A DNA stretch of 64,000 nt from an uncultured bacterium (GTDB taxonomy: Bacteria; Hydrothermota; Tepidihabitantia; Tepidihabitantales; Tepidihabitantaceae). The stretch lies in assembly GCA_965370805.1 (NCBI GenBank), contig CBDUVZ010000002.1:706-64705 (forward strand), written 5' to 3'. Shown here piece by piece: positions 5,415-55,543 of this stretch (the first letter of the stretch is position 1; every line of letters begins with the position of its first letter). The notes below the pieces were generated by a model. That model saw nothing but the letters and a program-made list of their open reading frames with translations, was not told the origin of the DNA and ran no database searches. The position numbers and the translations under genes were made by a program.

Positions 5415-6611
5415 TTACCCTCCTACTGTCAGTTTCGAATTCCGAATTCCAATTCCCGAATTCGTGTTTCGGCATTCGGCATTCGGCATTTCCGACCGGT
5501 TTTTCAGCAACTCGAACACGTGCCGTTCATCGCGCACCACCCGGTTCTCGTCAAACAGCTCGACCGCCCGGAGCCGACCTGCCCGGCCCATTCCCCGACC
5601 CAGCGCTTCGTCGGTAACAACCCGGACAATGGCGTCGGCCAGGCCGACCGAGTCCTGGGGCGCCACCAGCAGTCCGGTCACACCGTCGACCACTTCCTCG
5701 CGGCAACCCCGGATGTCGGTTGCCACCACCGGCTTCCCCATCGCCATCGCCTCGATTACGCTCCGCGGCATCCCTTCGCGCCACGACGGCAGGACGAAAA
5801 GCGTAGCCCGGGCCAGCAGGCTTCGGACATCGCGGCGGAAGCCGGGGAAGTCCCACCAAGACCCCACCCCGATTTCCTCCGCCAGTCGCTGAACGTTTCC
5901 GAGGTCCGGTCCGTCGCCGGCAAGCATAAACCGCACGAACGGCACGCGGTCAATCACCCGGCGCGACGCTCGAACCAGTTCGAACACGCCTTTCTCGCGC
6001 ACCACCCGACAGGCACAGAGCACAATCGGCCTGACCGGACCGGCTTCCGGGGGGTGCGGCTTGAATTCCTCCAACTGCACGCCGTTGCCGATGTGAACCG
6101 GGCCCAATCCGGTCCGGTGCGAACGGATGCCGCGCTTCCTTGCCCAGTCATAGTCTTCGTGTGACTGGAGCAGCAACAGGTCGGTCAGGTAGCGACACGC
6201 GAACTCCTCCGCTCCGGCGAACAGCAGCCGCTTCCATCGTCCCATCCGGTCGTGATGGTAGAACCCGTGGGCAGTGTAGACGATATACGGCACCCGGCAG
6301 AGCCGGCCCGCGATGCGACCGACCATCGCCATCACCGGGGTATGAACGTGAAGCACATCCGGCCGGTATCGCTTGAGCAGCGCGATAACACTGAACAGGC
6401 TCTTCACCAGTTCCTTCGGGCCAAGGTTCCGCGTTGTCCGGACCCGGAACATCTCAAACCCGGCATCCTGAACCCGATGTGCTCCTTTTGACCCGGGATC
6501 GAAATCGGCCGCACCCGCGACTTCCCAGCCCGCGTCCCGCAACTCCTCAAGCAGCGCGAACAGCAGGGTTCCAATCGTGCTGTCGAGCGCCGCAAGCTGA
6601 AGGATTCTCAT
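5415..6611 (-). CDS. Glycosyltransferase family 4 (GT-B, group 1)
   Basis: GT4 motifs (EGMPRSVIEAMAMGKPVVATD). ATGA start/stop overlap with the upstream gene. The C-terminal tail reads through a heptamer repeat element. Confidence 0.8.
   Translation of the reverse strand: MRILQLAALDSTIGTLLFALLEELRDAGWEVAGAADFDPGSKGAHRVQDAGFEMFRVRTTRNLGPKELVKSLFSVIALLKRYRPDVLHVHTPVMAMVGRIAGRLCRVPYIVYTAHGFYHHDRMGRWKRLLFAGAEEFACRYLTDLLLLQSHEDYDWARKRGIRSHRTGLGPVHIGNGVQLEEFKPHPPEAGPVRPIVLCACRVVREKGVFELVRASRRVIDRVPFVRFMLAGDGPDLGNVQRLAEEIGVGSWWDFPGFRRDVRSLLARATLFVLPSWREGMPRSVIEAMAMGKPVVATDIRGCREEVVDGVTGLLVAPQDSVGLADAIVRVVTDEALGRGMGRAGRLRAVELFDENRVVRDERHVFELLKNRSEMPNAECRNTNSGIGIRNSKLTVGG
5432..5493. repeat. Heptanucleotide REP-like palindromic element (GAATTCC/CATTCGG units), copy A
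   Basis: Seen directly: gaattccgaattccaattcccgaattcgtgtttcggcattcggcattcggcatt. Confidence 0.7.
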
Positions 6612-7924
6612 CGTTTCATGTTATCCGGGTATAGATGTCTGACCCTTGACACGACCGGCCGGAACTTGCCGTTTGCGCCGCGTGCTATCCGGTTGACCCG
6701 CTCGACCTCAATCGCCACCCCGTGGCCCAGCTTGTCGTGCAGGTTACGGACAAGCCCGGTTTCCGTATCCTGACTGCAGCCCGGCCCGGGTACAATCAGG
6801 ACCCGAATCCGCTTCAGTTCCTCCTGGACAATCTGGCCCTCGACAATGCCCTCAAGGCCCCAGAACACCGGGGCCAGCACGCCGATGTAGCCGCGTCCGG
6901 GCACATAGATAATATCATTGGTGCGCCCCTCGATTCGGTTGATGCGCGGCATATCCCGGCCGCACGCGCACCGCTCCTTCGGACCCGGCACCGCGATGTC
7001 GCCGACCCGATACCGAACCAGGAACATCACCGGGTTGAGAAACGACGTCACGACAACCTCGCCCGGTTCTCCACAGTCTGCGGGCGTTCCATCTTTGCGG
7101 ATGATCTCGCTGATTCCGTACTCGGGATTGACGTGCATCGTACCGTGTTCGCAGTCACACCAGTAACAACTGGGCTCGCTCGACGCGTACTGATTGAAAA
7201 CCCGGCACCCGAACGCCTGCTCCAGTTCCTCCCGGTCTCCCGGCCGCAGGGTTTCGGCGGTCACCATCAGTGCCCTGGGAACCGGCAGCCTGGTCCCGAG
7301 ATTCCGACTCACCCGGGCGATAGCCAGCAGCGCGGACGGATACCCGTCAATCACCTCGGGCCGGAACTCACGCAATGCCTCGGCGTAGAACGGCACGGTT
7401 TCCGGAGAAATGCACATGGCCGAGAACAGCACCGCATTGCCCGGACGGTTTCTGCGCCAGTAGACGTGACTGTGCGAGCCCTGATTTGCCGGAATGATGG
7501 GCCGGCCGGTGAACTGGGCACGCCGGGGATAGAAAGGGTCACTCAGCCCGGCCCAGTGCCGGAGCCTGGCCACGAACGCCCAGCGCCGCGAAAACCCGTC
7601 CCGGGTATCGTAGTGCGTCAGCGCCGCTCCGGTCGTACCGCTGGTGGACGCCTTCCGGCAGTTGCGCAGATCGAATCCCTGGTCCACGAACAAGTGCTCC
7701 TGACCACGCACCTGGGACCTCTCCAGAACCGGCAGGCCACGGATGTCCTCCGGCTCCTTGAAATCCCCGGGAAAGCAGCCGAGTCCCTTCTGCAACTCAC
7801 GGTAATACGGCACACGGGCAAAAGCAACCCGCAGCAACGCCTGCAGCCGGCGAACCTGATACCGGTGATACTCCTCCGCGCTCCACGTCTCCGAACCCAA
7901 CAGGAAATCAAACTCAGCCCGCAT
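6608..7924 (-). CDS. Phenylacetate-CoA ligase family adenylate-forming enzyme (PaaK/CapK/F390-synthetase-like)
   Basis: ASTSGTTG AMP-binding motif. N-terminal SAEEYHRYQVRRLQALL matches PaaK-family N-termini. Start set at ATG 7924 (MRAEFDF). The longer ORF to 8089 translates a repeat element (RHSAFGI), so the start is uncertain. Confidence 0.7.
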   Translation of the reverse strand: MRAEFDFLLGSETWSAEEYHRYQVRRLQALLRVAFARVPYYRELQKGLGCFPGDFKEPEDIRGLPVLERSQVRGQEHLFVDQGFDLRNCRKASTSGTTGAALTHYDTRDGFSRRWAFVARLRHWAGLSDPFYPRRAQFTGRPIIPANQGSHSHVYWRRNRPGNAVLFSAMCISPETVPFYAEALREFRPEVIDGYPSALLAIARVSRNLGTRLPVPRALMVTAETLRPGDREELEQAFGCRVFNQYASSEPSCYWCDCEHGTMHVNPEYGISEIIRKDGTPADCGEPGEVVVTSFLNPVMFLVRYRVGDIAVPGPKERCACGRDMPRINRIEGRTNDIIYVPGRGYIGVLAPVFWGLEGIVEGQIVQEELKRIRVLIVPGPGCSQDTETGLVRNLHDKLGHGVAIEVERVNRIARGANGKFRPVVSRVRHLYPDNMKR

Positions 7925-8023
7925 CCGAGCCTGGTCCGCGCGCCGGTATCGGAAGTCAAACCCCTGGGCCGACACAAACAGGTGCTGCAGCCATACCGGG
8001 GCACGCTGGTAGCAGGCCTCGGC

Positions 8024-8097
8024 AATGCCGAATGCCGAATGCCGAATGCCGGGTTTCAAGTGCCGAATTCGGAAATCGTCATTTGGCATTCGGTATT
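8024..8097. repeat. Heptanucleotide REP-like palindromic element, copy B (both orientations, potential hairpin)
   Basis: atgccgaatgccgaatgccgaatgccgggtttcaagtgccgaattcggaaatcgtcatttggcattcggtat; lies between the CapK-like and CapA-like genes. Confidence 0.7.
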
Positions 8098-9173
8098 TCC
8101 TTTTGTTTCAGCACCGTCGCCGCCGCAATCACATGCTGCCACCTGAATCTGCGGAAAGCCTGCAGCAGACCGCCGGAACGCCCGATGAAGCGCACCGGTG
8201 CGCCCAGCGCCCACTGTCGGACCAGTTCGCGCCGCCAGAGCCGCCGGTAACGGGACTCGGGCCATCCCAACGGCCGGTTCAGCCGTTCCTGCATCCGACG
8301 CCTCCGCCCGGTGTCGTCACGCCTCAAAACATGACCCTCCTGCAGCAGAGGCACCACCGCAACGCGCTCCACGCCCGTTCTGCTCACTTCGCAGATGCCC
8401 ACACCTGTCTGCCGGGAAATACGGGGCCACGGCCGGCTCTCACGACCATTCAGGCCCCCGAACAGGAAATTCCCCAGGCTGTAGAAAATGCAGCCATTCT
8501 CCCAGCGCTCGTACCCCTGCAGGCAGTGCGAATGGTGACCTGCGACCACCCTGGCCCCGGCCTCGACCAGTCGCCTTGCGAGACGCCGCTGTGCCGTGTG
8601 CGGGTATCTGACGAACTCGGTTCCCCAGTGCAGGTTCACCACCACGATATCGACCCGGGCCGCAAGCTCACGCACCTCGGCAACCGCCCGCTCTTCATCA
8701 AGGAAGTTAACATGCACCCCGGCCCGGTCCGGGATACACGGATTGGTCTCCCGGCCGACGTAATTGAGCAGGCCGAAAGTCAGCCCTTGCCGGCTGAGCA
8801 CCAGCGGTCGTTGCGCCGCGGCCGCACTCACCGAGGCCCCGAGGAATCCGAGCCCGTGCTCCTCGAAGAACCGGACTGTATTCCCGAAGCCCTGCTCCAG
8901 GCAATCGTACGCGTGGTTGTTGGCCATGAGCCCGACGTCGAGTCGAAGCGGAAGAATGCAGGTCGCGGCATCGGCAGTAGTGCATACCCGCGGCTGCTTC
9001 AGCACGTTCATTCCGCCGTCGCCCCAGAGCGGCGACTCCCAGTTCCCGACCCGAAGAGCACATTCTCCCAGATGCGAAGCGACTTCGGCCATGTTGCCGG
9101 TCAACGCCGGGTGGTACTGCGGGTCGCAGAAAAGCCCGTTGAGACTGATATCACCCACGAACTGGAGTGTCAC
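8079..9173 (-). CDS. CapA-family protein (PGA-capsule-type metallophosphoesterase-like)
   Basis: CapA-like sequence (FVGDISLNG ... VVNLHWGTEF ... AGHHSHCLQG). Start set at GTG 9173 (VTLQFVGD) with GGAGGG 5 nt upstream. The longer ATG ORF overlaps the upstream gene by 100 nt. Confidence 0.7.
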   Translation of the reverse strand: MTLQFVGDISLNGLFCDPQYHPALTGNMAEVASHLGECALRVGNWESPLWGDGGMNVLKQPRVCTTADAATCILPLRLDVGLMANNHAYDCLEQGFGNTVRFFEEHGLGFLGASVSAAAAQRPLVLSRQGLTFGLLNYVGRETNPCIPDRAGVHVNFLDEERAVAEVRELAARVDIVVVNLHWGTEFVRYPHTAQRRLARRLVEAGARVVAGHHSHCLQGYERWENGCIFYSLGNFLFGGLNGRESRPWPRISRQTGVGICEVSRTGVERVAVVPLLQEGHVLRRDDTGRRRRMQERLNRPLGWPESRYRRLWRRELVRQWALGAPVRFIGRSGGLLQAFRRFRWQHVIAAATVLKQKEIPNAK

Positions 9174-10512
9174 TGTTCCCTCCGCGTTCTGCACTCTGCA
9201 ATCTGCCTTCTGACTTCTCCTCGTGTTCGGGCTTCCTGACCAGCACGGAAGCAATACCGGTTGCCAGTCCCAGGAAAAGCAGGAATCCCCGGTCTCGGAA
9301 GAGCGTGCCGTGACACATCTTGACCACGCTGGCGAGTATGAACGCCAGCACCAGCGATTGAACCAGTCCGGCGCTTCCGCCCGCGCGAGTCAACCTGGCT
9401 GCAGGCAATCGCTTCAACTGGCCGGACGCCGCCCGTGCCAGCAGCCAGCAGAAACCCAGCAGGCCGAGCACCCCGGTTTCCACCAGCAATGCCAGCAGTC
9501 CGTTGTGGATTTCGTACGTCCCGGTGTAGTCAAGCATGTATCCGAGTCCGGGGCCGAGGCCGAGCGGGAACCATTCGGCAATTCGCTCCATCACCGACTG
9601 GAACTGTAGGTGGGTGAACGACCCCCCGCTGCCGACCAGTGCCATGCCGTCAGCAAGCCGGCGGCCGAACACCGATTCGACCAACTGCTCCCCGAAGGCC
9701 CCGATGAGCCCGACCGCGGTCAGACTTAGAACCAGCAGAACCGCATACCCGCGACCGCGACCGCGCAGGAACCCGATGAGCAGTGACGCCAGGACCCAGC
9801 AGCCAATGGCGATTGTCCCGCCCCGCTTGCCCGCGGCAACAACGAAGAACATGCCCGCCATCCCGGCCAGTATGATAAACAGCCGGGACCAGCGGCCCCG
9901 GAAAACGACCCATCCCAGCGCCAGCAGCAGCCCGACTGTGGAGAAACCGTAACTCGCAAGCTGGCCGGTAGCGCGGAACGTACCCCGCACCAGCCATCCT
10001 GCCTGGGCCGCAAACCAGTGCGTACCGGAGAAGAAATCGTGGGCGACAATCACCAGTTGCCAGCACACCCCGACCGCAATCCCTGCCACGAGCATTCTGG
10101 TCAGGGCCGGTGACCGGCTGACATTGTACCCGAACACGAAATAGAGGAACGCCACAATCATCGCCGAAGATGCCGTGACTACCGACATGCCGCCGCCGCT
10201 CACAACCACGCCGACTGCGGCCGAGAACAGAATGGCGAACAGGTAGACAAATCCGGACAAATGGAGCCTGAACTTGGATGAAACCGCCAGACCGACGATA
10301 CCCATCACTACTATCACGTCAACCGGTGCGATACGCTGCAACAGAGAAACGGTCTCCTCCGCGCCGGTGAATGTCCGGCTCAGACTGATAAGTGGCAGCG
10401 CCGCACCGACCAGAAGCATCAGACCCCGCTGCCACTTCGCCGGCGTGTGTTCCGTGTGAACCCGCGGCACGGCAGTATTGCCGGGAAGAAGGACACCAGT
10501 GTCTGCCATCAT
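9151..10512 (-). CDS. O-antigen ligase / polymerase-like membrane protein (Wzy_C/WaaL family)
   Basis: Polytopic membrane protein with the Wzy_C-type loop YEIHNGLLALLVETGVLGLLGF. Confidence 0.7.
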   Translation of the reverse strand: MMADTGVLLPGNTAVPRVHTEHTPAKWQRGLMLLVGAALPLISLSRTFTGAEETVSLLQRIAPVDVIVVMGIVGLAVSSKFRLHLSGFVYLFAILFSAAVGVVVSGGGMSVVTASSAMIVAFLYFVFGYNVSRSPALTRMLVAGIAVGVCWQLVIVAHDFFSGTHWFAAQAGWLVRGTFRATGQLASYGFSTVGLLLALGWVVFRGRWSRLFIILAGMAGMFFVVAAGKRGGTIAIGCWVLASLLIGFLRGRGRGYAVLLVLSLTAVGLIGAFGEQLVESVFGRRLADGMALVGSGGSFTHLQFQSVMERIAEWFPLGLGPGLGYMLDYTGTYEIHNGLLALLVETGVLGLLGFCWLLARAASGQLKRLPAARLTRAGGSAGLVQSLVLAFILASVVKMCHGTLFRDRGFLLFLGLATGIASVLVRKPEHEEKSEGRLQSAERGGNSDTPVRG

Positions 10513-13261: not shown

Positions 13262-16200
13262 ATGTTCATACGAACGCTGCTCACCGGCTGCCTGGTCATT
13301 ACGTTGGCTGGGGCCGTTTCCGTCGAGGCGCCATTCGTCGAAGTCCCTGGTCGTATTATGCCCGATGGCGGCGGTGGGCCGGATGCGTGGGGCTACACCT
13401 GGCTGGACAGCGACACAAGTTGTCCGGGCGCACCGGTCTACAACTGGATCGATATCACCCGGTTGCCGGGAGTCATCCACTGCTCCACACTGGTGGATGA
13501 CAATGTTGCCGGTCCGCTCTCGATGGGGATTGAGTTTCCTCTCTACTGGCATACCTACTCCAATTTCTACCTCGGTTCAAACGGCTACATCTCATTTGAC
13601 GACGACTACAACGCATCGCATCCTTTTCGAGATATCCCCAATGTACTGCACCCCAACAATGTAATCGCCCCGCTGCTGTCCGACCTCAATCCTGGGAATC
13701 TGCCGGCGCGCAAGGGTTACTTCTACTGGCACAACGACACCCGGGATACGTTCATCATCCAGTGCGAAAGCGTTCCGTTCTGGGGCGTGCCTACGAGCAA
13801 CAACACATTTCAGATTATCCTGTCCCAGTCCGACAGCACTATCACCTACCAGTACAAAGAGCAGACCGGGGCGCCTTACCTCGGTTGGACTCCGGGGAAC
13901 GCCACCGTCGGGATTGAGAATATCGTCGGGCTGGTCGGGCTCCGTTACCTCTACGGCAACACGCCGTCACAGAATGACATCCATCCCGGGCTGGCGATTC
14001 GGTTCACGCCGCCGGCCACGACGAGTCACCGATTCCACGACATGATGGTCAAATGGGCGATGAACTCGAAATCCGGGGGGATGTTCCTCCATGACGCCCC
14101 GATTCAGCCGGCCAGTATCAGGGCCTGCTTCCTGAATGCCGGCAACCAGATTGCCTACGACGATTCGATGTTCGCCGAGATCCGGGACCTGGGGGGCACT
14201 CTGGTGTTCGCGGAGTCGGCCTGGACCGAGGAAATGCGGGTCGGCGAGCAAGTCATCCATACCTTCGGTGACTGGACGCCGCCGGACACCGGGTTCTACA
14301 TCCTGAAGGTCAAGTCGCGAATGGTAGGAGACGAATGGGCCGGGGACGACTCCGTGCTCGTCGAGATCCACGTTGTCAACTACACCTTCCCGACCACACT
14401 CTACTACGATGCGGACCGCACCGGTTCGGTCAGCCTGTCCGGGCCTCACGGGTTCGGGACCAAGTTCATTCCGCCCCGCTTCCCGGTCCGTATCGACGAG
14501 CTCTACTACTACTTCACGAGTGCCGGAGCCCAGTGCACTGTCTACGTCTATGACGACGACGGGCCCAACGGCGCGCCCGGGACCGTACTCCTCGACTCGG
14601 TCATTACCACGGTCGCCGGTTGGAACTCAGTCGACATCCAGGCCTGCAGCGTCAACGTCCAGTCCGGCGGCTTCTACGTCTGCTACATGACAAACACCGC
14701 CGGCAACCCCCGCATCGGACTCGACAACACGCTCCCGCACGCCCGGCGCAGTCTCGAGTTCACCGGCCGCTGGGCGGAATTCCGGTGGAATGAAACCCAG
14801 GACTTCCTGATTCGAGCCAAAGTAGGCCAGGGTACGCCCACCCATGATATCGCGGTCACCGAGATGCTCCAGCCCTCCGGCAACCACGACTCCGGCGACG
14901 TTGTCATACCTATCGCCCGCATTCAGAACAACGGCATGTTCCACGAAAACGGGTTCAACGTCACCTTCACGATAACCGGCTCAGGCTACCAGCAGACACG
15001 CACCTGCTCCCTCAACCGCGGCACCTCGGACACCGTCGCCTTCCCCCCCTGGACCGCGATGCCCGGGTACGGCTACGTCCCCCGATGCTCCATCCACCTC
15101 GCCGCCGACGTCAACCCCGTCAACGACACCATCAGCGGCGCACCCTTTGACGTCTACGGCCGCGACGTCGGTACGGCCGCTATCCTCGCGCCCCGCGACA
15201 CTACCAACTACGGGGACGTTATCACCCCAGAGGCAGAAATACTCAACTACGGCAACAGCGCCGAAGACTTCCTCGTCCGCTTCAAGATACCCGGCGCAGG
15301 CTATCAAGACTCGGCCAACGTCCACCTCGGAGTCGGCGAAAGTGACACGGTTACCTTCGACACCTGGCTCGCGGACACGGTCGGAAATCCCCCCGCCATG
15401 ACCTGCTCCACCGAACTCGGCACCGACATGAACCCCGACAACGACCGTGCCACCGCCCCCCTCTTCATCCGCTACGCTGATGTCGGGGCCATCCAAATCC
15501 TCCAGCCCGTCGGCAGCTACGACACCCTCACCACAATCATCCCCTCCGCCCGGGTCACCAACGTCGGCAACGCGCCCGAGACCTTCAAGGCATTCCTCAC
15601 GGTCAACGACCCCACAGTCGATGCCCCTGTCTACTCCGAATCGCTCAATGTCCTACTCCACCCCGACGTCGATTCGACGGTGATCTTCCCGCCCACACGC
15701 TTCCACGTCATCGGCACCCATACGGCCAAATGCTCGGTCCATGTGGGATGGGAACAAGACTGGACCAACAACGTCATCGACAACGACTTCCAGATCATCC
15801 CCACCATCCCGCACAACGTCACCGCCCAACGCATCCTCGCCCCGACCGGGACGATCGACAGCGGCGCAGTAGTAACGCCAAGCGTTATCGTCCGCAACAC
15901 AGGACTCAGCACCGAAACCTTCGACGTCCACTTCACCATCGACCCCGGATACCACGACTCGGCAACCGTCTCCGCCCTCCCCCCCGCCACATCGGACACG
16001 GTAGAATTCGCGGACTGGACCGCCCAACCCCGCGACAGCACAACCGCCACCGCCTGGACCCTACTCATCGGCGACGAAATGCCGGAAGACGATACGACCA
16101 GCCTCCGGCTCCTCGTCCAGGTCCGCGACGTCGGGGTTGAGCAGGTCATCTCACCGGTGGGTACGCTGCCGGTGGATACCATCGTCTATCCCGAGTGCCG

Positions 16201-18058
16201 AGTCCGCAACTACGGCAACACGACCGAGACCTTCGACGTCGAATTCCGCATCGGCCACTACCTCGGCACGGCCACCGCGACCGCACTCGCACCCGGCAAC
16301 ACCCAAGACCTCGTGATGAGCCAGCCCTACACCACCCAAGTCGGCGTATGGCTCGACCGCGCCCGCACCACCCTCACCGGTGACATCAACCCCGCCAACG
16401 ACCTCGCACTCGACACCCTCTGGGTCCCCGGCCCCGTCACCCACGACGTCGGCGTCGACGAAATACTCGCCCCAGTCGGCACCGTCAACCCCGGCCAGAC
16501 CATCACCCCCAGCGCCCGCGTCGCCAACTACGGCGACCAGACCGAGACCTTCCGGGCTTACTTCGCAATCTACGACACGACCACCGACGCCCAAGTCTAC
16601 GACGAATCGCTCCACGTCACCCTCGCCCCAGTCACGGACACAACCCTCCCCTACCCCGACGTCAGCTTCACACTCCAAGGCCCCTACACCACCCACTGCT
16701 CCACCTACCTCCCCACCGACCAGAACCAACTCAACAACGTCAAAACCGGCCAATTCCACGTCAAACTCCAACTCCCCTGGGACCCCGGCTGGCACGAAGT
16801 CCAACCCATACCACTCCAGCCCAGCGGCAAACCAGTCAAACGCGGCGCTTGGGCCACCCACAACCACGGCGACGACCTCATCTACACCGCCAAAGGCTAC
16901 AAAACCACCGACTACTACTCCTACAACCCCCTCGCCAACACCTGGAATACCCTCACCGGCATGCCCTACCAACGCCACACCAACCCCAAATGGGCCAGAA
17001 AAGTCCCCCGCAAAGGCTCCAAAGGCGCAGCCGACGGCGACAACTACATCTACGTCACCCAAGGCAACAACACCCTCGGATTCTGGCGCTACGACATCGA
17101 CCTCGACTCCTGGACAACACTCCACGACATCCCCGCCGGACCCAACAACAAGAAAGTCAAAGGCGGCACCGACCTCGCCTACCTAGTCCGCGACGACGGC
17201 CAAGCCTACATCTACCTCCTCAAAGGCTACCGCACCGAATTCTACCGCTACCACATCACAGCCAACACCTGGCAAACCCTCGCCCCCGCCCCCACCGGCA
17301 AACGCGCCAAATGGGGCAGAGGCTCCTGGCTCATCGCCCAAAACCAAACCGCCACCACCCTCTACGCCCACAAAGCCAAATACAACGAACTCTGGTCCTA
17401 CGACGTCCCCGCCGACTCCTGGGACCAACAACTCACCGGCATGCCCTACGTCGGAATGCAAGGCCGCAAAAAGAAATCCAAAGACGGCGGCTCCGCCGAC
17501 TGGTACGACAGCGAAATCTACGCCCTCAAAGGCGGCAACACCAACGAATTCTGGAAGTACACCCCAACCACCGACACCTGGACCGAGCTCGATTCGATGC
17601 CGACGATGGGCTCCACCGGCAGGAAGAAACGAGTCAAGTACGGCGCTGACCTCGTCAACTACGCCGGCTACCCCGCGTTCTTCTCGCTCAAAGGCAACAA
17701 GACGCGCGAAATGTGGCGCTACTACTTCGGCTCGGCGGTGCTGGCTGTTCAGCCTCGCCCCGGTCGCGGCGGCGTCCTGGCCGAACCGTCATCGGGCATT
17801 CGGCAATCGTCATTCGACATTACCCCCAACCCGCTTGCGGGTGGATTCGCCACGCTGCGCTACAGCCTGCCCAGGGTCGGACACGCAACGGCGAGCATCT
17901 ACGACGCTACGGGTCGTGCCGTCACACAACAGACGGTACTTGCCGGTCGTACCGGGGCTGTCAATCTCGATCTGCGTTCGCTCAGCGCGGGAGTGTACCT
18001 GGTGCGGTTCGAAGCCGGCGGCTTCAGCACCACGAGAAAGCTTGTACTGCAGCGTTAG
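13262..18058 (+). CDS. Giant secreted T9SS cargo protein (~1598 aa): signal peptide, N-terminal choice-of-anchor/MAM-like domain, ~9 CARDB-like Ig repeats, 4 Lys-rich repeats, T9SS C-terminal sorting domain
   Basis: Start at ATG 13262 (MFIRTLLTGCLVITLAGA signal peptide) after AAGGAGG. Repeats of N[YH]G...ETF...F.I..GY.DSA.V.L..G.SDTV.F..W are CARDB-like. C-terminus ...GVYLVRFEAGGFSTTRKLVLQR is T9SS-CTD-like. Confidence 0.8.
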   Translation: MFIRTLLTGCLVITLAGAVSVEAPFVEVPGRIMPDGGGGPDAWGYTWLDSDTSCPGAPVYNWIDITRLPGVIHCSTLVDDNVAGPLSMGIEFPLYWHTYSNFYLGSNGYISFDDDYNASHPFRDIPNVLHPNNVIAPLLSDLNPGNLPARKGYFYWHNDTRDTFIIQCESVPFWGVPTSNNTFQIILSQSDSTITYQYKEQTGAPYLGWTPGNATVGIENIVGLVGLRYLYGNTPSQNDIHPGLAIRFTPPATTSHRFHDMMVKWAMNSKSGGMFLHDAPIQPASIRACFLNAGNQIAYDDSMFAEIRDLGGTLVFAESAWTEEMRVGEQVIHTFGDWTPPDTGFYILKVKSRMVGDEWAGDDSVLVEIHVVNYTFPTTLYYDADRTGSVSLSGPHGFGTKFIPPRFPVRIDELYYYFTSAGAQCTVYVYDDDGPNGAPGTVLLDSVITTVAGWNSVDIQACSVNVQSGGFYVCYMTNTAGNPRIGLDNTLPHARRSLEFTGRWAEFRWNETQDFLIRAKVGQGTPTHDIAVTEMLQPSGNHDSGDVVIPIARIQNNGMFHENGFNVTFTITGSGYQQTRTCSLNRGTSDTVAFPPWTAMPGYGYVPRCSIHLAADVNPVNDTISGAPFDVYGRDVGTAAILAPRDTTNYGDVITPEAEILNYGNSAEDFLVRFKIPGAGYQDSANVHLGVGESDTVTFDTWLADTVGNPPAMTCSTELGTDMNPDNDRATAPLFIRYADVGAIQILQPVGSYDTLTTIIPSARVTNVGNAPETFKAFLTVNDPTVDAPVYSESLNVLLHPDVDSTVIFPPTRFHVIGTHTAKCSVHVGWEQDWTNNVIDNDFQIIPTIPHNVTAQRILAPTGTIDSGAVVTPSVIVRNTGLSTETFDVHFTIDPGYHDSATVSALPPATSDTVEFADWTAQPRDSTTATAWTLLIGDEMPEDDTTSLRLLVQVRDVGVEQVISPVGTLPVDTIVYPECRVRNYGNTTETFDVEFRIGHYLGTATATALAPGNTQDLVMSQPYTTQVGVWLDRARTTLTGDINPANDLALDTLWVPGPVTHDVGVDEILAPVGTVNPGQTITPSARVANYGDQTETFRAYFAIYDTTTDAQVYDESLHVTLAPVTDTTLPYPDVSFTLQGPYTTHCSTYLPTDQNQLNNVKTGQFHVKLQLPWDPGWHEVQPIPLQPSGKPVKRGAWATHNHGDDLIYTAKGYKTTDYYSYNPLANTWNTLTGMPYQRHTNPKWARKVPRKGSKGAADGDNYIYVTQGNNTLGFWRYDIDLDSWTTLHDIPAGPNNKKVKGGTDLAYLVRDDGQAYIYLLKGYRTEFYRYHITANTWQTLAPAPTGKRAKWGRGSWLIAQNQTATTLYAHKAKYNELWSYDVPADSWDQQLTGMPYVGMQGRKKKSKDGGSADWYDSEIYALKGGNTNEFWKYTPTTDTWTELDSMPTMGSTGRKKRVKYGADLVNYAGYPAFFSLKGNKTREMWRYYFGSAVLAVQPRPGRGGVLAEPSSGIRQSSFDITPNPLAGGFATLRYSLPRVGHATASIYDATGRAVTQQTVLAGRTGAVNLDLRSLSAGVYLVRFEAGGFSTTRKLVLQR
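17788..17820. repeat. Heptanucleotide REP-like element, copy D, in frame inside the CDS at the CTD junction
   Basis: catcgggcattcggcaatcgtcattcgacatt encodes SSGIRQSSFDI immediately before the CTD start (TPNPLAGGF). Confidence 0.6.
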
Positions 18059-23698: not shown

Positions 23699-26600
23699 CT
23701 ACCGGTCGAGCAGCAGCACTTTGTGGGTTGAGGTCCGGTCCTCAGACCTGACCAGCAGGAAGTGGACGCCGGATGCCAAACCTCTGACCGGAAGATTCAG
23801 ATTATGCTTCCCCGGGCCAAGCTGAGTCTTCGGGAAGGCTGTAACCTTCCGGCCAGCCGTGTTGTAGAGGCTGAAGGTAACGTCGCTGACGCTGGGGATT
23901 TCGACGGAGAGCCTGATGCGTCCACTCGTCACCGGGTTCTCCAGCAACCTGACTTTGTAGGCGTACAGTTCCTCGGTCGATGATTCCGCGATGCCGATAG
24001 GAAGAAGCTCGTATATCTGGAACCCGGCATAGTAGTCGGCTACGTAGATGTACGGGCTCACCGCAGCCACTCCGCGGGTTGAGCCTGGGGTGTTGTAGTA
24101 GCCGACTCCGTGCGGATTGACCGGGTCAGACACATCAATTACCCACAGTCCACCGGTTCTGCAGGCGACATGGGCGTACTGGCTATCGACTGCTACATCT
24201 ACGGTGTAGCTCGAACCAGACCAGTGGCCGACGTCACAGGGATTTGTCGGGTCAGACACATCGATCATGTGCAGGCCGCCTCGATAGCTTGCGACATAGG
24301 CGTACCGGCCGCGAACCGCGACGCCTCTGGTGTCGGAAATCTGACAGTAACCAACCTCATGTGGATTTGCCGGGTCCGACACGTCGATTACCCGCAAACC
24401 AGCGTCGTCAGCAGCCACATAGGCGTAGTCGCCTTGCACTGCGACGCCTTCGGCATTGTCCGGGGTCTGACAAGACCCAACTTCCTGTGGATTCCGAGGA
24501 TTGGATATGTCAATCACCCGCAAACCGGCGTCGTCAGCAGCCACATAGGCATGTTGGTTCTGGACCGCGACACTGTTGGCGTCATCCGGTGTAGTGCAGT
24601 AGCCCAAGGCTTGAGGATTTGCCGGGTCGGACACATCGACAATACCCAGCCCGGCATCGTCAGCCGCCAGATAGGCGAGCTGACCTATGACCGTCAGGCC
24701 GAACACTCTGTCCGGCGTGGAACAGTGTCCGACCTCTCGTGGTTTGGTGGAGTCGGCAAGATCAAGGATACGCAGGCCGTCATGGTAGTTGGCCAGGTAG
24801 GCGTAGTGACCTGCCACCGCGACATCCCTGGTTCTATCAGGAACGTCGAACTGCCCGACGAGATGGGGGCCACGTGGGTCCGGTACGCTGACTACCCACA
24901 GGCCGCCGTCTTCGTCGGCAACGTACGCATGCGAGTCGAAAGCCGCCACGGCGCAGGCTGAGCCATCAAGCTGGCAATAGCCGACTTCACTCGGGCTTGC
25001 CGGGTCGGACACATCCACCAACCACAAGCCGGCCTCGTAGTCTGCTACATAGGCGAACATGCCTCTGATTGCCACACCGAGGGCTCTGTCCGGTACCGGG
25101 CAACAGCCTGTCTCCCGAGGGTTTGCCGGGTCGGAGACATCTATCACCCGCAGTCCGTTCTCCCAGCTAGGAACATAAGCGAAGTCGCCCTCCACCCAGA
25201 CGTCAGCGGCGTGGCTTGCAGTGGTGCACTGGCCGACTCTGTGCGGGTCTGTCGGGTCGGAGACATCAATCACCCGCAGGCCGTTCAAGTAGTCGGCAAC
25301 GTAGGCGTACTGTCCTTCGACCGCAACACCACAGGGGTCGTCAAAGGCATCACAGCGTCCGACCCCGGTCGGGTTTGCCGGGTCGGATACATCCACTACC
25401 CACAATCCGTCGGAGCAGTCAGTCACGTAGGCATATTGACCCTTGATCGCCACACTGGTGGCTTCCTCCGGGTCACGGCACCAACCGACCTCAAACGGCC
25501 CGGTTGGGTCAGTGATATCGATAACGCATAGTCCTTCCTCCTCGGCCGCCAGATAGGCATATCCGTTTTCCACGGCCACGCCCTGGACGAAACCCGGGAT
25601 GTGGCAGGAACCGACTTCATGTGGGTCGGTTGGGTCGGAGATATCGATCACCCGCAACCCCCAGTCCTCGTCGACGACGTAGGCGTACTGGCCCTGGAAT
25701 GCGACATCAACGGCCATGCCCGGAATCAAACAGTAGCCTACTTCCTGGGGGCCGGTCGGGCAGGACACATCGATTACTTGCAGGCCGTTCTGGTAGTCGG
25801 CGACATAGGCGTGCTGACCTGTAATCGCGACGCTCTGCGCGTCAACGATGTCCTCAAAGCAGCCGATCTCCACCGGTTCTCCCGGGTTCGACGCGTCGAT
25901 GATTCGGAGGCCCTCGTCGCTGGCCGCTACGTAAATGTGCCAGCCAACGGCCTCGACGCCAATAGCGTCGCTTGGTGTTTCACAATGGCCGATTTCCCGT
26001 GGATTGGAGGGATCGGCGATGCTGATGACCCGCAGACCTTCAGCCAAGTCAGCTACGTACGCAAACCAGGCTGCGACCGTGACGTCACAGGCACAATCCT
26101 GTGTCTCGCAGACACCCACTTCGTACGGGTTTGACGGGTCCGATACGTCGACTACCTGCAGGCCTTCATTCCCACCGGCCACATAAGCATACTGGCCGCG
26201 AACCGCTACTCCGTAGGCGTAATCTGGAGCAACGGCGGAGCCGACCTCGTGGGGGTGCACCGGATCAGACACATCGACCACGCAGAGGCCGGAGTTGCCG
26301 TTGGCCAGGTAGGCAAGGTTCCCCACAACCACGACTTCCTCGGTGTAGCTGCTCGTGCCGTGCCCACCGAGCCTCGTCGGTTCCGACGCTGATGAAACAT
26401 CCCAGATATCGAGCCCTGCGGATTTCGCCGCCACGTACAGCCTCTGTGTTGAGCTTTCGTAGAAGAGGCCCTTGACCACACCACGGGTACGGATCGGCTC
26501 ACCGGTCTCTCGGGGTTGGTTGAGATTGGAAACGTCGAGGATATACACCGCGCCGCCGGACCCGCAGAACGCGAGTTGTCGGACGGTATCGACGGCGACC

Positions 26601-26719
26601 GCATAGCACGGCCCGAACGGCCAGTTGCCGATGAATCTGACATTCAGGGAATCGCTGCCAACAGCCGTTCCACAGACCACCAGAATCAGGCCGAAAACCG
26701 CCAAGACTTTCTTCTTCAT
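23699..26719 (-). CDS. LVIVD-repeat beta-propeller protein with T9SS C-terminal sorting domain
   Basis: About 20 repeats of AY.VAV.G.YAYVAD...GL.VIDVSDP..P.EVG. Start at MKKKVLAVFGLILVV signal peptide. C-terminus is T9SS-CTD-like. Confidence 0.8.
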   Translation of the reverse strand: MKKKVLAVFGLILVVCGTAVGSDSLNVRFIGNWPFGPCYAVAVDTVRQLAFCGSGGAVYILDVSNLNQPRETGEPIRTRGVVKGLFYESSTQRLYVAAKSAGLDIWDVSSASEPTRLGGHGTSSYTEEVVVVGNLAYLANGNSGLCVVDVSDPVHPHEVGSAVAPDYAYGVAVRGQYAYVAGGNEGLQVVDVSDPSNPYEVGVCETQDCACDVTVAAWFAYVADLAEGLRVISIADPSNPREIGHCETPSDAIGVEAVGWHIYVAASDEGLRIIDASNPGEPVEIGCFEDIVDAQSVAITGQHAYVADYQNGLQVIDVSCPTGPQEVGYCLIPGMAVDVAFQGQYAYVVDEDWGLRVIDISDPTDPHEVGSCHIPGFVQGVAVENGYAYLAAEEEGLCVIDITDPTGPFEVGWCRDPEEATSVAIKGQYAYVTDCSDGLWVVDVSDPANPTGVGRCDAFDDPCGVAVEGQYAYVADYLNGLRVIDVSDPTDPHRVGQCTTASHAADVWVEGDFAYVPSWENGLRVIDVSDPANPRETGCCPVPDRALGVAIRGMFAYVADYEAGLWLVDVSDPASPSEVGYCQLDGSACAVAAFDSHAYVADEDGGLWVVSVPDPRGPHLVGQFDVPDRTRDVAVAGHYAYLANYHDGLRILDLADSTKPREVGHCSTPDRVFGLTVIGQLAYLAADDAGLGIVDVSDPANPQALGYCTTPDDANSVAVQNQHAYVAADDAGLRVIDISNPRNPQEVGSCQTPDNAEGVAVQGDYAYVAADDAGLRVIDVSDPANPHEVGYCQISDTRGVAVRGRYAYVASYRGGLHMIDVSDPTNPCDVGHWSGSSYTVDVAVDSQYAHVACRTGGLWVIDVSDPVNPHGVGYYNTPGSTRGVAAVSPYIYVADYYAGFQIYELLPIGIAESSTEELYAYKVRLLENPVTSGRIRLSVEIPSVSDVTFSLYNTAGRKVTAFPKTQLGPGKHNLNLPVRGLASGVHFLLVRSEDRTSTHKVLLLDR

Positions 26720-27312
26720 CGTAACCTCCCTAATCATGGGGTCGGCGGGAATCCCGAGACAGTTGTCTCTGCTGTGGCACCCGAAGTAGTGCGCCGCAGA
26801 AGCCTCGGGGTTCCTATCCCTACCCTCAATCAGGATATGGGAGCAGCAACTGATGTCAAGGCATCGCCGCCCACCGCCAGCAGACTGGGTTTCAGTTCCC
26901 GGCGCGGGCCGATGCGGGCCTCCTGCTTCCGTTTCTGCCCCGGAACCTGACCGGCATACTTACAAACCACCTGGAATCGTGACTGACAGCGGTTCTGGCC
27001 GTAATCCTGGCATGGCTTCTGGATGTCAGGCTGCATAAGTATCTGAAAAGGCTGCTGGATACGACCTTGTCTGTATGGCTGGGGTACGTCCTCGTTGGGA
27101 TTCTGTAACCGATGCTGGCGGTTCATCTGGTTCGGCATCTGACCAGGGGGGTGACTTCCCTGGTGATTTAGATTGCGGCTCTGCAATTTCCGACCTGGCA
27201 ACCGTTAGTTTCCGGGTCCTTTCCGGCTCTATCTATGTAACGACACAGAAAGAAAGGTCGGGCCGGAGGAAACAAGCTGACAGATGGCTATGAAGAAAGG
27301 AGCTGATGACTC

Positions 27313-27739: not shown

Positions 27740-30520
27740 CTACTCGACGATCAGCTTCCCGGTGCCGGACCATGTCCCCTGCTCGGCACGAACGAAGTAG
27801 ATCCCGGGCGACATGCCCTGCAGGTTCAGAGTGTATCCCGCGAAGCTGGGGATGGCCGTCTGTGTTCGCAGCAGCTTGCCGTCGGCATCGAAGACTTGCA
27901 CTATTGCGGCATCGGTTCCGGACAGGGCAATGCTCGCCTGGGTACGGGCCGGATTGGGCTGGATCACGAGTCGGGAACCGAACGGTATAGGTTGAAGCAG
28001 CGCCGGTTCGCGTTCGGTGCGGATGCCAGGACCGGTGCTGTAGTTGTAGCGCCAGAACTCCATGGTCTTGTTGCCCTTGAGAGCGAAAAAGAGGCCGTTG
28101 CCCAGGCTGACGAGGTCCGCGCCGTATTTCACGCGCTTTTTCCTGCCGGTGGAGCCGAACGACGGCATGGTGTCGAGTTCGTACCACGAGTCGGCCCAGG
28201 GCGAGTACTGCCAGAATTCCTGCGTGTTGCCACCCTTCAGGCAGAACATCTGGTTGATGAGCCAGGCGCCTGAGCCACCGTCCTTGAGTTTCTTGCGCCG
28301 GCCCGCCCTCCCGACGAACGGCATGTCGGCGAGTTGCTCAAGCCAGCTGCCATTCGCGACGTCGTAGGCAAAGGTCTCATTGTACTTGGACTTGCAGCAG
28401 TAGATGGTGCCGGCGCCATCATGGACAATGAAAGAGCCGTACTTGTACTTGTTCTTGCCCGAGTTGCCCAGTGGAGCCGAAGTCAGAGTACTGTCCCACA
28501 CGCCGGTGACGGTATTGTAGCGGTAGAACTCGTTCTTGTAGCCCTTCAGCAGATAGACCCAGCCGGTGTCGCCTAGGACAAGGTACTGCATCTTGGTACC
28601 GCCCTTGATTTTCTTCCCGGTTGCGCCGAGCGGGATGTTAGCCATTTGTGTCCACGCAGTGTCGGTCGTGCCGTAACGCCAGAACTCGACCGTGTTGTTG
28701 CCCTTGACTGCGTAAATGTGGTGGCCGCCGTCATTGCACAAGGCCCCGCCTTTGTAGACCTGCTTGTCGCTTGGACCGTCCGGAACGGATTTCATCTGCT
28801 CCCAGGCGTCAACTGCCACGTTGTACCGGTAGAAATCCCCGGTCTTATTGCCCTTGAGTGCGTAGATGAACCAACCATCAGACTGACTTGTGAGGGTAAG
28901 CGCTCCGCCCCGTTTGACTTCCTTGTTGCTGGGCGGCTTGGGCATGGGTGCCATTTCGGTCCAGCCGGGCGGTATCGGCGGGGCATCAACAGTGAAAAGA
29001 GCCTGGGAGGCATCGTTGGATGGAACCGCATCGCCGGCCAGCTCGGTAGAGCAGGAAGCCACGTAGCTGCCGAGCGTTGCGTTCCAGTTCAGAAAGGTGA
29101 CGTCCTGGGATGCTCTGGGCTGGAGGCCGTTGATGTAGATCGAGTCGATGTAGACAACAGAACCTCCTCGGCGTATCCGGAACTTGACGCCGAAGCTTTC
29201 GGTGAACCCGCCGTAGTTGCGGATACGGGCGCTCGGCAGGACTGGGCCGGGATAGATACTTCCGGTGGGTACCAGGATAGCTTCCACACCGACATTGTGG
29301 TGCGGGGGACCAACTACAAAGGAAGATCGGAGGATATCGTTCCGGGTATCCATGTCGTCGCTGTACCCGGTGCTGCAGGCCATGGCAATCGTGCCCAGCG
29401 TCTCGGCCTGCCATTCACGGAATGTCACGTCGCGAGTCACCCTGGGTACCAGGTTCTCGACGAGTACGCTGTCCAGCCAGGCCTGTATCCGGAAGTAGCA
29501 GTAGAACGCGGAAATAGTCTCGGTGCCGAAGTTCTTCACTCGTGCCTGAGGCGTAACGACCATGCCCGAGTCGACGGTGTCGGGTGGTAAAGTGATCCGG
29601 AAGACTCCGGCGTCCCGCACGACCACAGTGACGGCTGTATCAGCCCGGTCATTGGCCGGATTGATGTCGCCGGTGAGCATGGTTCTGCATAAAACATGGT
29701 TGACTCCACGCTCGGTGGCTGTCCAGTCACGAAAAGCGATACGACGGGTGCTGCCAGGACCCAGGTCGTCGACCAGAGTGGTGTCGGTGTATCCAGAGCC
29801 AATTGTCATTCTCGTCCAGAACGTCTCGGCACTGGCACCGTAGTTCTTGACCGTCGCCTCGGGTCTTACTACGTGATTCGAGTCAACCGCACCGATGGGC
29901 GTCTCGACTGTCAGGACCCCCACGTCAGACGAGGAGTTCATGCCGGTGACGCTGACGTCGTCTATTGCCCAGAAGGTGATGTGTTCGGTGATGCCGTCGA
30001 ACGCCCAGGCCAGGCGGACGTTCGATCTGTTCGCGGCCCAGGGAAGCGCAAGAACCTGCAGCTCCGGCCCGATGATACGCTGGTAGTAATCAAAGACCAC
30101 GTGTTCGAAGGGACCGCCATCCACCGAGCCGACGAGTGCGATCCGGTAGGGTTGGTCTTCCCCGCCGCCGTAGTACGTGGAGCACCGCAGGACGACGAGG
30201 TTGAAATCAGAGCAGTTAATAGACGGACTGATGAGGCTGTCAACGTTCTGTATTTCAGGCGGCTGTGAGTGCAACAGCGCGTACGGTGTCGCGTTGTCCG
30301 TCCACGGGTCCAGCTCGAGGTCAGGAGCCCGGTGCCAGTCATTGCTGCTGGTATCAGCAGGGCCGAATACGATTCGCCAGCCCGCGGGTGGTTGGACGGT
30401 CGACCAGGAACCGTTGAAGTTCTCGGAAAGCAGAATATCCTGGGCCGGGGCTGCTGCGGGAACGAACAATGCCGCCAGCAGTAACGCCGCCAGGGTCCTT
30501 AGAGTAATGAAGGATTGCAT
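27740..30520 (-). CDS. Giant secreted T9SS cargo protein paralog (~926 aa): signal peptide, choice-of-anchor-J/MAM-like N-domain, CARDB-like repeats, 4 Lys-rich repeats, T9SS CTD
   Basis: Start set at MQSFITLRTLAALLLAALFVPAAAPAQ (ATG 30520, AGGAAAT RBS). The longer listed ORF adds 123 low-complexity codons. The C-terminal half is collinear with the C-terminal half of 13262-18058. Confidence 0.8.
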   Translation of the reverse strand: MQSFITLRTLAALLLAALFVPAAAPAQDILLSENFNGSWSTVQPPAGWRIVFGPADTSSNDWHRAPDLELDPWTDNATPYALLHSQPPEIQNVDSLISPSINCSDFNLVVLRCSTYYGGGEDQPYRIALVGSVDGGPFEHVVFDYYQRIIGPELQVLALPWAANRSNVRLAWAFDGITEHITFWAIDDVSVTGMNSSSDVGVLTVETPIGAVDSNHVVRPEATVKNYGASAETFWTRMTIGSGYTDTTLVDDLGPGSTRRIAFRDWTATERGVNHVLCRTMLTGDINPANDRADTAVTVVVRDAGVFRITLPPDTVDSGMVVTPQARVKNFGTETISAFYCYFRIQAWLDSVLVENLVPRVTRDVTFREWQAETLGTIAMACSTGYSDDMDTRNDILRSSFVVGPPHHNVGVEAILVPTGSIYPGPVLPSARIRNYGGFTESFGVKFRIRRGGSVVYIDSIYINGLQPRASQDVTFLNWNATLGSYVASCSTELAGDAVPSNDASQALFTVDAPPIPPGWTEMAPMPKPPSNKEVKRGGALTLTSQSDGWFIYALKGNKTGDFYRYNVAVDAWEQMKSVPDGPSDKQVYKGGALCNDGGHHIYAVKGNNTVEFWRYGTTDTAWTQMANIPLGATGKKIKGGTKMQYLVLGDTGWVYLLKGYKNEFYRYNTVTGVWDSTLTSAPLGNSGKNKYKYGSFIVHDGAGTIYCCKSKYNETFAYDVANGSWLEQLADMPFVGRAGRRKKLKDGGSGAWLINQMFCLKGGNTQEFWQYSPWADSWYELDTMPSFGSTGRKKRVKYGADLVSLGNGLFFALKGNKTMEFWRYNYSTGPGIRTEREPALLQPIPFGSRLVIQPNPARTQASIALSGTDAAIVQVFDADGKLLRTQTAIPSFAGYTLNLQGMSPGIYFVRAEQGTWSGTGKLIVE

Positions 30521-30558
30521 GGCTATTTCCTGTACTTGGTCAGTATGCCTTTCATGAA

Positions 30559-30586
30559 ACATAGCCGATAGATGCCGGTCGTCAAT
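30559..30586 (-). promoter_or_regulatory. Sigma70-type promoter TTGACG-16-TATGTT (minus strand) for the giant paralog
   Basis: Read from the reverse complement. The -35 overlaps the stop of the dipeptidase gene. Confidence 0.4.
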
Positions 30587-50770: not shown

Positions 50771-50784
50771 TAGACGAGGTGCGA

Positions 50785-55123: not shown

Positions 55124-55543
55124 GTGACCTCAGGGACCGGCCGGATTATTGACGTCAACCTGAACCGGTTGACCGAAGGCCTGAGGGTTGTCGAAGACGT
55201 TGTCCGGCTCGGACTTGAGCGCAAAGGGCTGTTGCGCAGCATCCGGGCGCTACGGACCCGGGTCGGGAAAGAAACCCGGGCATTACGCAAGCGGGTTGTA
55301 CTGAGCCGGGACAGCGAGACCGACCCCGGCCGGGGCGACCGGTTCGACCGCACCGGACGCAAGAGCCTTGACGATGTGCTGCTGGCCAACTTCAAACGGG
55401 CCCAAGAAGCGGCGCGGGTACTGGAGGAAGTGTTGAAGATTGAGGAGCCGCGTCTGAGCGTGAAGTTCAAGGCGGTTCGGTTCCGGCTTTATGATCTGGA
55501 GAAACAGGCGGTAGAGGCATCGAATCGAAGGGAGCAATCGTGA
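55124..55543 (+). CDS. Hypothetical conserved protein (~140 aa), translationally coupled to the downstream T9SS gene
   Basis: Genome-typical codon usage. RIIDVNLNRLTEGLRVVEDVVRL motif of unknown family. Stop overlaps the next start (GTGA). Start uncertain: the ORF track begins at TTG 55088. Confidence 0.4.
   Translation: MTSGTGRIIDVNLNRLTEGLRVVEDVVRLGLERKGLLRSIRALRTRVGKETRALRKRVVLSRDSETDPGRGDRFDRTGRKSLDDVLLANFKRAQEAARVLEEVLKIEEPRLSVKFKAVRFRLYDLEKQAVEASNRREQS

Follow-up and report, generated by a model that had tools for sequence, protein, structure and literature searches.

Tandem repeats with unit lengths not divisible by three are normally purged from bacterial genes or serve there as on/off switches. 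Repetitive extragenic palindromic (REP) elements are extragenic, and each consists of one imperfect palindrome of 20–40 bp. Two papers report that among the long simple repeats of many bacteria those with heptanucleotide units are the most common, with polymerase slippage proposed as their source (PMC4679880, PMC4692102), and the authors of the first of these papers considered that repeats could be tolerated at the ends of proteins or between modules. In Porphyromonas, the linker of RgpB is disordered, its cleavage by PorU is independent of sequence, and substitutions in it are tolerated while lengthening alters its behaviour (PMC4804311). Here we examine short tandem arrays, mostly of 7-base units, that are translated in frame at or inside the C-terminal sorting domains (CTDs) of type IX secretion system (T9SS) proteins in a stretch of 64,000 nucleotides of DNA (contig CBDUVZ010000002.1; hereafter the window). 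The source organism is placed in candidate division WOR-3, the RecA encoded at 58442–59491 having an identical public copy and next relatives of at most 87% identity, many of them named WOR-3. A literature search found the repeat sequence in no paper, and WOR-3 together with type IX secretion in no paper. The explanation that we consider probable is that the segments are coding microsatellites, situated where the sorting signal constrains length and not sequence, rather than insertions of a mobile or REP element.

Results

In-frame arrays at sorting-domain junctions

The window carries eight T9SS CTD genes: 13262–18058 (p1), 23699–26737, 27740–30889 (p5), 31699–33093, 42442–43818 (p2), 43828–46494 (p3), 53387–55078 (p4) and 55540–56919. 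The call of the type A CTD of the CARDB/Kelch cargo protein p1 (17819–18058 including the stop codon, plus strand) rests on profile scores and a fold match and lies above the cut-off twice (TIGR04183, 44.8 bits with a cut-off of 23; PF18962, 32.6 bits with a cut-off of 27). TIGR04183 scores for p2 (19.8), p3 (17.8) and p4 (22.5) are slightly under the cut-off of 23, and the CTD of p4 exceeds the Pfam FlgD_ig cut-off (39.9 bits versus 27).

A sequence-only reading of this DNA had proposed that one REP-like heptamer element was inserted in frame at the CTD junctions of four cargo genes (p1 to p4). The four translations that it gave, and the kept reading frame, are correct, with coordinates off by one to three bases at most. 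Site 1 (17790–17824, plus strand) is a degenerate array of five heptamers (CATCGGG CATTCGG CAATCGT CATTCGA CATTACC; period-7 self-match 16/21) that is translated in frame within p1 as SSGIRQSSFDIT and adjoins the PNP codons at 17825–17833 that open the CTD. At site 2 (42670–42708, minus strand; 17/21) an array of the CATTCGG family, with CGAATG-type units on the sense strand, encodes MPNAELRMTNG in the p2 linker immediately 5′ of the CTD; the homologs P0098 and P0087 have equivalent array-coded peptides at this position. Site 3 (43966–44008, minus strand; 17/21) reads CATTCGT CATTCGA CACTCGG CATTCGG CATTG in the sense direction and encodes HSSFDTRHSAL in the loop between strands 1 and 2 of the p3 CTD. 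Sites 1 to 3 share the CATTCGG heptamer family; site 4 (54761–54808, plus strand), however, is an octamer array of another family, AGGGTTCC AGAGTTCG AGGGGTCC AGGGGTCC AGGAGGC (period 8, 17/21), with the unit (A/G)GGGTCC and GGGTCCAG-like. It encodes RVPEFEGSRGPGG in the linker before the CTD (LVQNHPNPF) of the FG-GAP gene p4. Drawn more tightly, sites 2 to 4 span 42670–42702, 43966–43998 and 54761–54799, respectively.

Two further arrays within the p2 CTD had been overlooked. The first, (GACGCAC)n with sense unit GTGCGTC (42587–42622, minus strand), was recovered by Tandem Repeats Finder, by DNA alignment of the paralogs and by the period-7 scan; it encodes ASGVKRGASCV between CTD strands 1 and 2, in the loop that the CATTCGN array occupies in the neighbouring paralog p3. 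The second, (ACCGCTA)n with sense unit GGTTAGC (42465–42504, minus strand; Tandem Repeats Finder and period scan), encodes READSGERLAV close to the C-terminus of the p2 CTD and aligns with a 12-nt gap in p3. The unit of this array that would place TAG in frame has GAG instead, and the same unit makes a linker array in the homolog L179.

Tandem Repeats Finder reports period 7 with 3.3–5.3 copies at 5468, 8024, 42467, 42672 and 43967, and the arrays have the make-up of simple sequence repeats, that is, head-to-tail units of 5–11 bases in at least three copies. CATTCGG contains no stop codon in any phase of either strand, and the peptides observed at the sites arise because translation of three CATTCGG units gives AFGIRHS from one strand and RMPNAEC from the opposite one.

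At a period-scan threshold of 16 self-matches in 21 (the thresholds are arbitrary, though the contrast among periods is stark), the window holds eight period-7 and two period-8 arrays, with zero to two at periods 5, 6, 9, 10 and 11. Six of these ten arrays lie no more than 270 nt from the stop codon of a CTD gene and all six are translated within open reading frames (ORFs). The end regions of CTD genes make up approximately 3.75% of the window, and a binomial estimate for six of ten is p about 5e-7. The remaining four arrays are intergenic or at gene boundaries, and none is within other coding sequence of the window. Moreover, the 13-mer CATTCGNCATTCG is found 14 times in the window at no more than one mismatch, versus 0.45 expected, and none of 100 shuffles reaches 14.

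Length is conserved and the coding arrays do not resemble mobile elements

A small mobile or REP/MITE-like (miniature inverted-repeat transposable) element that inserted four times at CTD junctions would account for one sequence family being present at several dispersed sites, intergenic ones included, and the intergenic copies are able to pair into hairpins. The coding copies do not fit this description: they run head-to-tail, have no defined ends, target duplication or palindrome, and fold no better than shuffled sequence (z of -0.49, +0.88 and -0.60), and the label REP-like is therefore not apt for them. Being translated inside ORFs, six of the window's ten arrays are not extragenic; no Rfam family matched anywhere in the window, and no transposase was noticed among the annotated ORFs of the 64 kb.

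Comparison with homologs does not bear out an insertion either. (Because no close orthologs of the window proteins were found, exact look-ups yielding no contig that encodes them and every 90%-identity cluster being a singleton, this comparison was made against homologs at 45–60% identity.) Linker and loop lengths match those of homologs, so that there is no net gain in length: the p1 linker is equal in length to that of 58 homologs, p2 is about three residues longer than its homologs, the p3 loop segment is the same length as the paralogous p2 segment, and the p4 linker, set against 42 homologs, lies towards the top of their range. The array at site 3 does occupy, as had been proposed, the position of a segment of its paralog, but the p2 segment that it would have replaced (42587–42622) is itself a heptamer array of the same length. 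Given in addition that site 4 belongs to a different repeat, and that in homologs array length and unit sequence vary continuously with many unrelated units at the same site, insertion of a mobile element is contradicted by these comparisons, and we consider it very improbable.

The p1 array is modelled as the end of a disordered linker and the edge of the sorting domain

When the C-terminal 190 residues of p1 are modelled with AlphaFold2, residues 81–108 have predicted local distance difference test (pLDDT) scores of 47–59 and come out as disordered; the strand SFDITP follows, and residues 121–190 (pLDDT >90) form a seven-strand Ig-like beta-sandwich. Because SFDITP is the first modelled strand of the CTD, the p1 array corresponds in this model to the end of the disordered linker together with CTD strand beta-1. 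Foldseek matched the modelled p1 CTD to the CTD of mirolase (8qb1; target TM score 0.71–0.73) and to the substrate chains of the T9SS complexes 8glk/8gl8 (0.69–0.78), both of them solved structures. The earlier suggestion that the element encodes a flexible linker, tolerated where T9SS cargo is cleaved, is supported by the disorder in this model, by the fold match and by the precedent of the RgpB linker (PMC4804311). By analogy, the combination of free sequence and conserved length at the array sites fits the behaviour of that linker, and the array-bearing linker would be the expected region of the PorU cut in WOR-3.

Heptamer arrays recur in homologs from WOR-3

We compiled 80 metagenomic loci that encode homologs of the C-terminal tail of p1, on contigs of unknown genome membership. 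A period-7 self-match of at least 16/21 within the 69 nt up to the PNP codons is seen in 25% of the genes, and no gene attains this at periods 5, 6, 8 or 9. With a threshold of 17/21, 18 arrays lie within 120 nt upstream of the PNP codons, six lie inside the CTD and about ten follow the stop codon, while the approximately 1400 nt of upstream cargo sequence per locus (~100 kb in total) contain none; other periods give nearly nothing. The array units of homologs are diverse (CATTCGN, CGAATGG, CGAGTGC, GATTTCA, GTTCGAA, CGTTCAT, CTACGAT and TACCGCT), and the CATTCGG family is found at one and the same site in both orientations, where it yields unrelated peptides, SFGIRHSTFAIAPNP in L131 and RVTIGEWRLAISPNP in L132. 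A protein scan for two repeat-coded cyclic peptides gave matches only in the last ~100 residues of CTD proteins (and in none of 120 RecA sequences), and arrays in the YVTN-propeller family and within a CTD loop were verified at the DNA level. In WOR-3 loci totalling 316 kb, period 7 outnumbers the other repeat periods, and CATTCGG with up to one mismatch accounts for 24% of heptamer arrays versus 3% expected, an excess of ~8-fold.

These findings bear on whether coincidence, or convergence through selection for a particular linker or strand peptide, could yield repeat-like DNA. The peptide pattern F-x-I-x before PNP is indeed conserved in the p1 family, and P0284 has IRQSSF in common with p1 but encodes it with different synonymous codons. 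A process at the level of DNA must nonetheless act, because selection on the protein would give a period of 21 nt and not 7 nt; the restriction to period 7, the opposite orientations with their unrelated peptides, the formation of non-coding arrays between genes by the same units and the excess of 13-mer matches in the window all speak against convergence, which the period-specific signal contradicts and which we regard as the least probable of the readings that we considered. Evolution within an array looks concerted, to judge from two paralogs on one contig that carry (GGTCGGT)2 and (GGCCGGT)2, respectively, with the same substitution in both adjacent units and no change in length.

A contingency switch would be a different use of such arrays: if a single 7-base unit were gained or lost, the CTD would leave the frame and the cargo would toggle between exported and retained. 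Such a switch would be effective just 5′ of the sorting signal, near-perfect units are seen in some coding arrays ((GATTTCA)4–5 in L130 and L191), and non-triplet repeats in genes for surface proteins are the classic contingency design (compare PMC2651432). However, no array throws the frame out in any of the 19 array-bearing homologs or anywhere among the 80 loci; unit number is equal between relatives (L130/L191 and L135/L169); and array-coded peptides such as STIYDLRMTIS are kept across subfamilies. The coding arrays of the window, moreover, are interrupted in nearly every unit, unlike the perfect tracts between genes (5468–5490 and 8024–8051). Six loci that were checked for frameshifted alleles showed motif variants only, and the stop in one of them, L176, is unrelated to an array. 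Phase variation is accordingly unlikely. (The stop in L176 is an in-frame linker stop, RYTPY*VVAGAQ, away from any array, and may reflect a pseudogene or a sequencing error.)

Several observations on homologs and on other genomes stand beside these results. In L144, L160 and L168, (GTTAGCA)n arrays start exactly at the stop codon of the CTD gene, ~228–275 nt after the PNP codons, and the unit's own TAG appears to supply the stop. Hexanucleotide GCNCAG repeats (QAQAQAQ) are found in the linker of L143, L172 and L196 and near the C-terminus of the CTD of L201, the same variable linker and loop positions that heptamer arrays hold in other homologs. A scan of a genome collection found the exact 21-mer (CATTCGG)3 in at least 118 loci of many phyla, and among the matches listed were Phycisphaerae, Verrucomicrobiota, Vicinamibacterales/Luteitalea, Gemmatimonadota, Lentisphaerae, Streptomyces, Burkholderiales and one other WOR-3 metagenome-assembled genome (MAG; L114). 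Some MAGs among these listed matches have several copies, with variant arrays at one or two mismatches alongside and at times inverted pairs (L036, L090 and L093). Four Verrucomicrobia genomes carry a perfect in-frame (CCGAATG)3–4 array (L027:4847–4867, L029:1428–1448, L039:5210–5230 and L083:6425–6445) in a gene that, judged by eye from its translation, resembles the beta subunit of phenylalanyl-tRNA synthetase; it encodes ANAECRMPNAE directly 5′ of an ANPLS motif and seems better conserved than the flanking DNA, which differs.

Two other origins were entertained and rejected. Seeding of arrays from the PNP or S-F-A codons at the start of the CTD, which is attractive for units such as GCGATTG in L132, was rejected as a general explanation because PNP is lacking in the CTD type of p2 and p3 and because, here and in other phyla, the same units also make up arrays between genes. 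An assembly artefact was rejected as well, the arrays being in frame in many independent metagenomes and the heptamer being present also in finished chromosomes.

Sorting-domain cassettes are exchanged between cargo genes

Cargo identity and CTD identity are only weakly coupled in the p1 family (r = 0.36 over 3081 pairs), and comparison of the sequences indicates that CTD cassettes have clearly been exchanged between its cargo genes. The CTD of L132, for instance, shows 90–96% protein identity and ~92% DNA identity to the CTD of a group with which L132 shares 40–45% identity in the cargo; this block of high identity runs from precisely the final unit of the L132 heptamer array as far as the stop codon. 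Genes with a junction array show a larger gap between cargo and CTD identity (0.17 versus 0.04 for the rest, p = 0.0002), which after collapsing of clusters is 0.16–0.17 versus 0.08–0.09 (p about 0.01), the tests not being phylogenetically independent. Similarly, for pairs whose cargo is 70–85% identical, the identity of the CTDs is 0.86 where arrays are absent and ~0.60 where they are present.

These observations raise the idea that the arrays are recombination joints, short stretches of homology at the junctions and after stop codons that let CTD cassettes be swapped or grafted; the arrays of L144, L160 and L168, which set in right at the stop codon, would suit this idea, as do the weak coupling, the cassette edge in L132 and the larger identity gap of array-bearing genes. 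Cassette sharing is, however, equally clear without arrays (L148/L178 and L154/L163), and a conversion tract between different cargo genes would stop at the junction regardless, because homology ends there. Junction arrays vary in unit and orientation among genes, so that most pairs would have no shared homology at that point, and arrays in the internal loops of the CTD are left unaccounted for. Within the window itself, array-bearing p1 is concordant with its relatives and it is the array-less p5 that is discordant, with a foreign CTD. We thus view recombination joints as a minority possibility, well behind coding microsatellites that are held only to length. In sum, of the earlier proposal that repeats mediated exchange of CTD cassettes, the exchange itself is borne out by the poor coupling of cargo and CTD identities, and a causal role of the arrays in it is possible but unproven.

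Note that p5, on the minus strand, has a Kelch-type cargo tail that is 47% identical to that of p1 and a CTD that is at most 36% identical to that of each of ~80 family members. From its sequence, p5 looks like a case of CTD replacement with no repeat array at the junction.

Arrays between genes and other repeats of the window

The four remaining arrays lie between genes or at gene boundaries. An octamer array, (AAGGGTCC)n, found by the repeat and period scans at 50797–50850 (50804–50841 when drawn more tightly; no strand assigned), is an intergenic sibling of site 4 and is flanked by single CATTCGG-family units at 50782–50794 and 50848–50860. A perfect (AATGCCG)4 array with an inverted partial array at 8080–8095 makes up the intergenic feature at 8018–8100 (no strand assigned; repeat and period scans and folding), which folds as a hairpin (RNA fold -31.4 kcal/mol, z = -2.76). 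This hairpin sits between two same-strand polysaccharide-synthesis genes, and the longest ORF of the downstream gene (6608–8089) begins within the repeats (MPNDDFRIRHLKPGIRHSAFGI...), its real start probably being further in. At a gene boundary, 5434–5499 (no strand assigned; repeat and period scans, hairpin z = -2.36), (CGAATTC)n is followed by (CATTCGG)3.3. A GT4 glycosyltransferase ORF (5415–6611, minus strand) reads through these arrays, so that its last ~25 residues are repeat-coded (EMPNAECRNTNSGIGIRNSKLTVGG); this tail is included in the public gene call (P0243), and the stop is 2 nt from the next start codon.

The signal-peptide codons of p2 (43766–43802, gene nt 17–53) show a weak period-7 signal (14/21) with a TTCTGCA-like unit that may be due to chance; it resembles a (TTCTGCA)n array at 9184–9223, at the boundary of genes 9151–10512 and 8079–9254. 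The YVTN beta-propeller gene p3 (minus strand) contains, at 44490–46380, 15 tandem copies of a 123-nt unit at ~72% identity, alternatively scored as 5 x 369 nt, which amount to a long run of 41-residue blades.

Discussion

We propose that WOR-3 genomes would make 7-base, and less often 8-base, tandem arrays at a high rate, with polymerase slippage as the source. Intergenic arrays would remain perfect, and genic ones would persist only where the protein fixes length but not sequence. In T9SS cargo the permissive places would be the disordered spacer between cargo and CTD, into the first beta strand, and two or three loops of the CTD. Three factors may favour tolerance there: sense units that lack a stop codon, or whose sole in-frame stop has been mutated away; cleavage of the spacer by the PorU sortase whatever its sequence; and disposal of the sorting domain after export. 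Arrays would substitute for pre-existing sequence of equal length and would afterwards behave as ordinary coding sequence under purifying selection. The data show the arrays themselves, their restriction to these places, their recurrence in homologs, the constant lengths and the intact frames; replication slippage or conversion within an array as the origin, and selection on linker length as the constraint, are what we infer.

Several points weigh against this proposal. Each gain or loss of 7 bases shifts the frame, and the rise of arrays of four to five units inside genes at constant length is left unexplained, as are the dominance of CATTCGG-like units and their recurrence in unrelated phyla. 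A neutral view predicts neither that the CTDs of array-bearing genes diverge more from those of their nearest cargo relatives nor that a cassette breakpoint falls on an array. Furthermore, the cargo examined consists of tightly folded propellers, so that the absence of arrays upstream partly reflects a scarcity of permissive sites, and only two cargo families are covered, with homologs on contigs whose genome membership is unknown.

The arrays may mark the 5′ edge of exchanged CTD cassettes, either as microhomology for the exchange or as its by-product. A broader version of this idea, which we offer as an improbable speculation, is that in WOR-3, and perhaps elsewhere among candidate phyla with a T9SS, stop-free heptamer microsatellites serve as universal joints that tolerate any frame and delimit the CTD cassette 5′ and in some cases 3′ as well. 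If so, junction arrays would be footprints of exchange held in frame by selection, and the secretion tag would be swapped or grafted by recombination, amounting to repeat-based recruitment of proteins to a secretion system. If arrays guide CTD exchange, this would explain how one export tag came to be common to hundreds of unrelated proteins in WOR-3 genomes.

As coding microsatellites, the arrays would indicate that a whole lineage tolerates in-frame non-triplet repeats at one defined place, the boundary of a secretion signal and its loops. They would provide a read-out, at the level of sequence, of which parts of the T9SS CTD are free and which are constrained in length, and would mark the likely PorU spacer in an uncultured phylum. 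They also carry a warning for annotation, in that SFGIRHS or MPNAEC at gene ends or in linkers represents read-through of a microsatellite and not a motif.

Among known systems, the RgpB linker resembles these sites in being a disordered spacer before a beta-sandwich CTD that is substitutable, sensitive to length and the site of PorU action (PMC4804311); for Bacteroidota linkers no repeat origin is described, and PorU cleavage in WOR-3 is put forward here by analogy only. REP elements and bacterial interspersed mosaic elements are likewise short, dispersed and multi-copy, and the intergenic arrays at 8018–8100 and 5434–5499 can form hairpins as they do, whereas the arrays here are tandem heptamers whose coding copies lack a palindrome. 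Contingency loci, for example in Haemophilus (compare PMC2651432), are alike in placing a non-triplet tandem repeat inside the gene of an exported or surface protein, but their repeats are perfect, variable in length between strains and often in the OFF state; the arrays here are interrupted, stable in unit number and always in frame.

Closer in unit length are the G-quadruplex heptamers GGGAATC and GGGGATT of Xanthomonas and Nostoc (PMC4692102), which form genus-specific arrays within ~50 bp of ORF ends on either strand, although the units in the window are not G-tracts. The TAACTGA repeats of marine Beggiatoaceae and the cyanobacterial heptamers (PMC4679880) share with the arrays described here a favoured heptamer, two to six copies near gene starts and a scattered phylogeny. 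TAACTGA differs in organisms and in unit: it contains stops in the forward orientation and is essentially intergenic (PMC4679880), whereas CATTCGG is stop-free in six frames and is translated here. The heptanucleotide long simple sequence repeats surveyed by Mrazek and colleagues, as relayed in PMC4679880 and PMC4692102, likewise have 7-base units head-to-tail, a dominant period and a mostly intergenic location near gene ends. Those surveys report non-triplet repeats as under-represented in coding sequence; the arrays of the present study cluster in a single specific coding module, where they are in frame and imperfect and bring no gain in length. The feature described here is real and statistically strong, and it joins a known phenomenon, bacterial simple repeats, to an unexpected place, with a plausible but hypothetical link to the exchange of CTD cassettes.

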